Positions 4,150-5,130 of a DNA stretch of 64,000 bases are shown in pieces. The position numbers were made by a program, and so were the translations under genes. Each line of letters starts with the position of its first letter. The first letter of the stretch is position 1. Source of the stretch: Vicugna vicugna (lineage: Eukaryota); contig MU058065.1 of NCBI GenBank assembly GCA_013265495.1, positions 1,077,527 to 1,141,526 on the forward strand, in the 5' to 3' direction. The notes below the pieces were generated by a model, which saw only the letters and a program-made list of their open reading frames with translations, had not been told where the DNA came from and ran no database searches.

Positions 4150-5130
4150 TACTACGGGCCTCACTGCGTCCCTAAGTCACGCACGATCCGGGCACTTACT
4201 CTCTGCGGGCTCTTTAGAACGGCGGCCGCTGGACGACGACTTCCTCAGCAGGCTGCGTCCCGAGGTAAAGAGGCTGGTTAGTTCCTCCAAAGGACTCGTG
4301 GGTGTTCTGGACCGGGAGCCGCTCGGAGCCGACCCGTAGGTGTTCACCGAAGCATTGACCATCTTGCTCCCATCTTGCGACACCGGTCTGGGGGTCGAAT
4401 GAGGCACTGATGGAGAGCTCCTGGAGAGGCTGCCCGAATGCACGGCGTCGTAGGGCGGAGGCCTTTTGAGGCTGAGCGGGGTCAGCGACCGCCCCATGCT
4501 GACAGGTGAGGGGGAGGCGGAGTGACTTTTGGGGTAGCCGTGGGGAGACTGCGTTCGGTACAGAGTGGAAGGCGGCGGAGGGGACGAGGAGAGCACGGAG
4601 GCGGCAGGACCCGGTCCCAGGGCTCCGGCCTGGTCTTTCTCCGGTTTAGGGTGGCCGGAGGCGTGGGACGGCAAGGCGGATGGAGATGCCCCGGCCTGCT
4701 GCTTCATGTAAGACACGTTCTCCAGCACGGGAAGCTTTGTGACCTCCAGCGGGGTGAGCGGAGACTCGTCACCCTTGGGAGTGCATGGCACTGAGGCCTT
4801 GGCGAAGTCCAAGTCAGGCACCGTGGGAGTAGCACACTGCGAAGAACAGCTGTGATGGTCGAGGTCACATTTTGAGTCTTGGCCTAAATCGTCAAAAATG
4901 GGGTATTTCATTTCCTCGTAGACGGCCTCACTCTGGTCGTCATCGTCCTTCCTGAAGTCTCTGAGAATGTTCCCCACCATCTCAATGTACACGGGCTCCT
5001 CCTCCTCGGGGTCCCCCGCGGGGCTGCCGACCTGGGAGAGGGAGGAGTCCCGCGGGAGCGACGTCCTCCGGGGCCCGTGCTTTTTGATATACGTCTCGTC
5101 AAACGATGTGCTGAGCTGAGTGTTCGGGTT
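4150..5130. promoter_or_regulatory. Intragenic CpG-island-like region over the large exon
   Basis: Visibly high GC and CpG density against AT-rich, CpG-poor flanks; not computed. Confidence 0.65.

Follow-up and report, generated by a model that had tools for sequence, protein, structure and literature searches.

Results

The large NYAP2 exon and its junction

The window, by which the whole stretch of 64,000 nucleotides analysed here is meant, carries on its minus strand the large coding exon of NYAP2 and the coding exon that precedes it (Table 1). On that strand the large exon is bounded by ag/TG at 5198 and GAGA/gtaagt at 4200; its G+C content is 60.7%, and it translates without a stop into 332 residues (P0001) that correspond to residues 175-540 of the alpaca protein XP_031533800.2 minus residues 318-350. 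A first-pass annotation had described an exon with the frame, both splice sites and both YxxM motifs intact, in which CTPKG runs directly into DESP at 4771/4770. All of this was seen again in the window, with the codons at 4785..4759 exactly as that annotation gave them. In the DNA, the breakpoint may lie 1-2 nt away from this position. DESP opens an invariant stretch of 18 residues in the alignment with 16 orthologues. Neither the 64-kb window nor a 180-kb sample of its scaffold contains any N.

Table 1. Coordinates of NYAP2 features in the window
Feature	Position	Strand	Description and basis
Large NYAP2 coding exon	4200..5198	minus	999 nt, phase 1 at both ends; sequence and open frame
Splice acceptor AG	5199..5200	minus	preceded by a polypyrimidine tract; sequence
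Splice donor GT	4198..4199	minus	gtaagt; sequence
First YxxM motif, YIEM	4978..4989	minus	intact; columns invariant in the 16-orthologue alignment
Second YxxM motif, YEEM	4909..4920	minus	intact; columns invariant in the 16-orthologue alignment
CTPKG codons	4771..4785	minus	TGC ACT CCC AAG GGT, flanking the gap on the left
Junction of the 99-nt gap	4770..4771	minus	GGT/GAC; sequence and protein alignments
DESP codons	4759..4770	minus	GAC GAG TCT CCG, flanking the gap on the right
SSSS run	4228..4239	minus	one Ser extra; camelid alignment
Preceding NYAP2 coding exon	49041..49342	minus	intact; alpaca residues 75-174

The exon has its highest identity to NYAP2 proteins, and the paralogue loci lie on other pieces of the genome assembly (C6859 and C3511), in agreement with its assignment as the NYAP2 orthologue. 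All six NYAP2 coding exons were located on one 10.66-Mb piece (C1347) of the assembly, a 2.03-Gb draft in 12,405 pieces. Exons 1, 2, 4 and the last exon are identical to the alpaca protein (residues 1-74, 75-174, 542-610 and 646-720, respectively). In a Pfam profile search, the large exon matched NYAP_N (E 3.6e-64, 217.9 bits, cut-off 38.6) and NYAP_C (E 2.5e-21, 77.1 bits, cut-off 25; profile positions 1-73). The NYAP_N match falls into two parts, at profile positions 122-278 and 297-394, and leaves positions of about 279-296 unmatched.

A missing block in the most conserved part of the exon

A block of 33 residues that has no counterpart in the window is present in 16/16 orthologues of NYAP2, a set that reaches from pig to basking shark; against these, the sole long gap of the exon spans 33 columns between PKG and DESP. 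The block is likewise carried by all 11 sequences of a second, camelid-containing alignment, which also includes human NYAP2. On the evidence of these alignments, the 33-residue gap is no accident of alignment. The human block that the first-pass annotation described therefore exists, and the possibility that NYAP2 orthologues generally do without it was ruled out. The exon arithmetic offered there is also confirmed: human NYAP2 includes the block but not the extra Ser of the window, so that 999 + 99 - 3 gives 1095 nt.

The NYAP motif has an age of 450 million years. In the orthologue alignment, the block has 24/33 invariant columns and a mean majority fraction of 0.966; the corresponding values for the exon outside the block are 151/332 and 0.872. 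The best-conserved runs of 33 columns overlap the second half of the block and the 10-residue stretch that follows it. Taken as a whole, the alignment places the block under very strong constraint, nearly frozen from shark to pig, and in the best-conserved part of the exon, in keeping with the earlier description of its core as one of the best-conserved family blocks.

A broader survey sorted 278 other related proteins by motif patterns for the flanks and the core of the block, and a clean 33-residue gap was found in none of them. Both flanks were covered in 191 proteins, which carried either the strict core (190) or a variant core (1). Among the remaining 87, 77 carried the strict core and 10 did not: one fragment ended inside the block, two had a variant core, two lost the reading frame once the block had begun, three matched no motif pattern, and two were gene models with far larger losses. 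These last two are an old pufferfish model and a rattlesnake model (Crotalus adamanteus, P0187), in which TPKG jumps straight to RSLLRK, a break that shares its left edge with the gap in the window. No representative with the gap was found among the protein clusters, and a gap-free match stood at the top of neither list of representatives. A search with residues 95-195 that was limited to proteins below 182 aa in length gave 0 matches.

Paralogues in the same genome

A Pfam NYAP_N scan of the whole genome returned three loci only, namely NYAP2 and two paralogues. A 50-residue probe spanning the block matched only the same two paralogue loci, at 84% identity on C6859 and 65% on C3511; the gene layout leads us to take these loci as NYAP1 and MYO16. 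Their open frames read through stretches of 41 and 21 residues at this point, and they match NYAP_N without a break (profile positions 143-379 and 119-393). The earlier claim that the core of the block is common to NYAP1 and MYO16 thus agrees with its retention in both paralogue loci of this genome. A second NYAP2 copy or haplotig with the block was not found in this genome. The NYAP1-like locus is GC-rich and sits on a 40-kb piece (C6859), where a run of 143 N lies just downstream of the large exon (8246-8388 of G000:C6859:30001-40000).

Comparison with alpaca and camels

The named camelid models were drawn from the 90%-identity clusters to which the pig and cattle proteins belong. The alpaca model XP_031533800.2 (P0248, 720 aa) belongs to another assembly, one that has a contig of 96.8 Mb as compared to the 10.66-Mb piece here. 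It is identical to the window exon at 332/332 residues, including the same extra Ser, with a single gap. Unlike the window, the alpaca protein carries residues 318-350, the 33 residues of the block. Identity of the exon to the camel models is 98.5-98.8%, and to pig 97.0%. The window thus derives from the alpaca or from a very near relative, a level at which a second assembly contains the exon in full. The block is present in 6/6 Camelus models as well as in the 1/1 alpaca model.

Because the alpaca and Camelus proteins keep the block, the 99-bp gap is, on these protein comparisons, confined to this assembly or to the individual sequenced and is not a camelid trait. The suggestion in the first-pass annotation of a fixed natural motif knockout consequently fails as a lineage trait: the alpaca, identical elsewhere in the exon, and all six Camelus models retain what would have been lost, the outcome for which that annotation had allowed a polymorphism at most. 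A camelid-wide trait is accordingly refuted by these proteins; nothing beyond the window itself speaks for it, and we give it next to no chance.

The extra Ser shows a different distribution. KSSSSGRR is read in the window and in the 7 named camelid models, whereas pig, cattle, dolphin and human have three Ser at this position. Since the additional residue is common to the 7 named camelid models, it is a true feature of the camelid lineage. A four-Ser run also occurs in one NYAP2 model of the cat family.

Models from other assemblies differ singly from their relatives in the same exon. One Camelus ferus model (EPY83432.1, P0267) reads LLSHRHRPPLL, with an extra HR inside the block that is absent from the other Camelus ferus model (P0272) and from the remaining Camelus models; this insertion reflects either polymorphism or a fault in the assembly behind the model. 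A goat (Capra hircus) model (P0070) is without 47 residues further down the exon. These models resemble the window in showing single-model differences in this exon, but their positions (a 2-residue insertion and a 47-residue gap) differ from that of the gap in the window.

DNA around the junction

Read sets were queried with 120 nt on the junction (9 sampled words), which gave 17 rows, each with 0.22 of these words and none with half or more; these rows stem from many organisms and most likely share only a conserved part with the query. Block DNA from a close relative was sought in a scan of prokaryote genome contigs, which yielded 0 relatives, and in a metagenome scan, which yielded one locus, and that one bird-like. 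The locus is a complete bird-like NYAP2 large exon at 1495-2590 of a 23-kb JGI metagenome contig (L015), which is host or environmental vertebrate DNA inside the metagenome. Against the 99-nt gap of the window, the contig carries the block, at too great a distance for a comparison of microhomology.

Discussion

The gap in NYAP2 probably arose in the assembly and not in the DNA of the animal, a reading that we hold with modest assurance. A local error of the draft assembly, such as a mis-join or an over-correction in the C-rich stretch of proline codons, would have dropped 99 nt, and a loss of this length would preserve the reading frame by chance. Selection can be expected to remove real deletions from so constrained a sequence, while assembly errors would pass unfiltered; because the block is strongly constrained and only real deletions face this filter, the assembly error is favoured. 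Several results point in the same direction. The alpaca model, which derives from another assembly and matches the exon at every one of its 332 residues and exons 1, 2, 4 and the last exon in full, holds the block, and so do all six Camelus models. The core of the block is kept in both paralogues, where NYAP_N is continuous and not split as in NYAP2, and the clean gap is seen in none of the 278 related proteins. Private oddities in the same exon occur in models from other assemblies (Camelus ferus, goat), and the draft itself is in 12,405 pieces, with the GC-rich paralogue locus on a 40-kb piece that has a 143-N gap.

Other features of the locus sit less comfortably with an assembly error. The junction is clean and its flanks are perfect at the protein level up to the breakpoint, no N is present in the 64-kb window or in the 180 kb sampled on the scaffold, and the G+C of the exon is only 60.7%. 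A loss at random would keep the frame with only a 1 in 3 chance. Further, no long exact repeat is evident that an assembler could have collapsed. The first-pass annotation had pointed to an imperfect repeat of CPPKG and CSPNS at the edges of the block. In the alpaca protein, CTPKG (residues 313-317) and CSPNS (residues 346-350) do lie exactly 33 codons apart, and that part of the proposal stands; the two pentapeptides share 2/5 residues, however, an identity too weak to account for a collapse alone. Finally, a real deletion in the heterozygous state that was chosen by the assembler would look identical to an error.

A real deletion allele in some form, whether heterozygous, polymorphic, or present at the species level in a South American camelid other than the alpaca, is accordingly a substantial possibility, if short of an even one. 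Within it, a private or low-frequency deletion allele of the sequenced animal, heterozygous or homozygous, is the form to be taken most seriously, as a tentative candidate. Such an allele could have originated by replication slippage or by microhomology-mediated end joining between the codons for CTPKG and those for CSPNS, and the spacing of exactly 33 codons between them in the alpaca is consistent with this origin. The clean in-frame gap with perfect flanks and no Ns nearby, the intact state of the other NYAP2 exons, and the lack of an exact repeat that would explain a collapse by the assembler all fit a real allele. Partial loss from NYAP2 could also be tolerated, as this genome retains the motif in NYAP1 and MYO16 and, according to the accessible part of one report, the three family proteins are thought to act redundantly (PMC6705222). 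Against a real allele stand the extreme constraint on the block, its retention in the alpaca reference and in all camel models, and the finding of the deleted form in none of the independent protein sets searched.

A real deletion that is homozygous, or common within a population or species of South American camelid, is unlikely. It would be a natural in-frame knockout of the proline-rich half of the NYAP homology motif, with the PI3K-docking YxxM pair left in place, in animals whose NYAP1 and MYO16 still carry the motif. Less likely again is a deletion fixed or common in llama, guanaco or vicuna, which would amount to a species-level knockout of the proline-rich stretch. Protein identity to the alpaca cannot separate the four closely related species, which leaves room for this reading, but it needs a recent fixation within a block invariant since sharks, and the protein searches turned up no protein of llama, guanaco or vicuna that had the gap.

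A very improbable alternative treats the 99 nt as a cryptic GT-AG intron (exitron) that was lost through spliced cDNA, either in the germ line or as transcript-derived sequence in the assembly. Its arithmetic would work, in that AAGGG/TGAC would remain if the full allele read GG/G TTR ... AG/T, and the snake model P0187 also breaks right after TPKG. However, the isoform models among the 278 proteins include none in which this block alone is missing, and the boundaries in the bird-like contig read GGC TTG ... TCT and not GT..AG.

Returning to the preferred reading, in which the assembly dropped the 99 nt, the finding matters only as a flag on the NYAP2 model of this assembly. It would also warn against reading an in-frame gap as a lineage trait when a conserved exon shows it in one assembly only. 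Searches of the literature found no work on NYAP2 in alpaca, and for camel only papers that looked unrelated, as judged by their listing alone.

The consequences of a real allele can be framed by the NYAP homology motif (NHM) of NYAP1, NYAP2 and MYO16/NYAP3, which in the accessible text of one source consists of two YxxM tyrosines and a proline-rich stretch (PMC7464383). For Myo16, the same text describes phosphorylation of the YxxM tyrosines by Fyn, with docking of the p85 SH2 domain there as a suggestion, and places the WAVE1-interacting region upstream of the NHM; no ligand of the proline-rich stretch is named there, apart from a suggestion that Fyn SH3 might use PxxP sites (PMC7464383). 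The missing block of 33 residues probably corresponds to this proline-rich stretch. Compared with the NHM, the NYAP2 of the window keeps both YxxM motifs and its NYAP_N and NYAP_C matches, whereas it is without the conserved proline-rich stretch that follows the YxxM pair in both paralogues.

If real, the short NYAP2 would presumably still be phosphorylated and bind p85 while losing a candidate docking site. The redundancy attributed to the three NYAP family members in the available portion of the literature would soften any effect of such a protein (PMC6705222). As a real allele, it would constitute a separation-of-function variant, in which the YxxM pair is kept and the proline-rich stretch is lost, and it would be useful for probing the motif.
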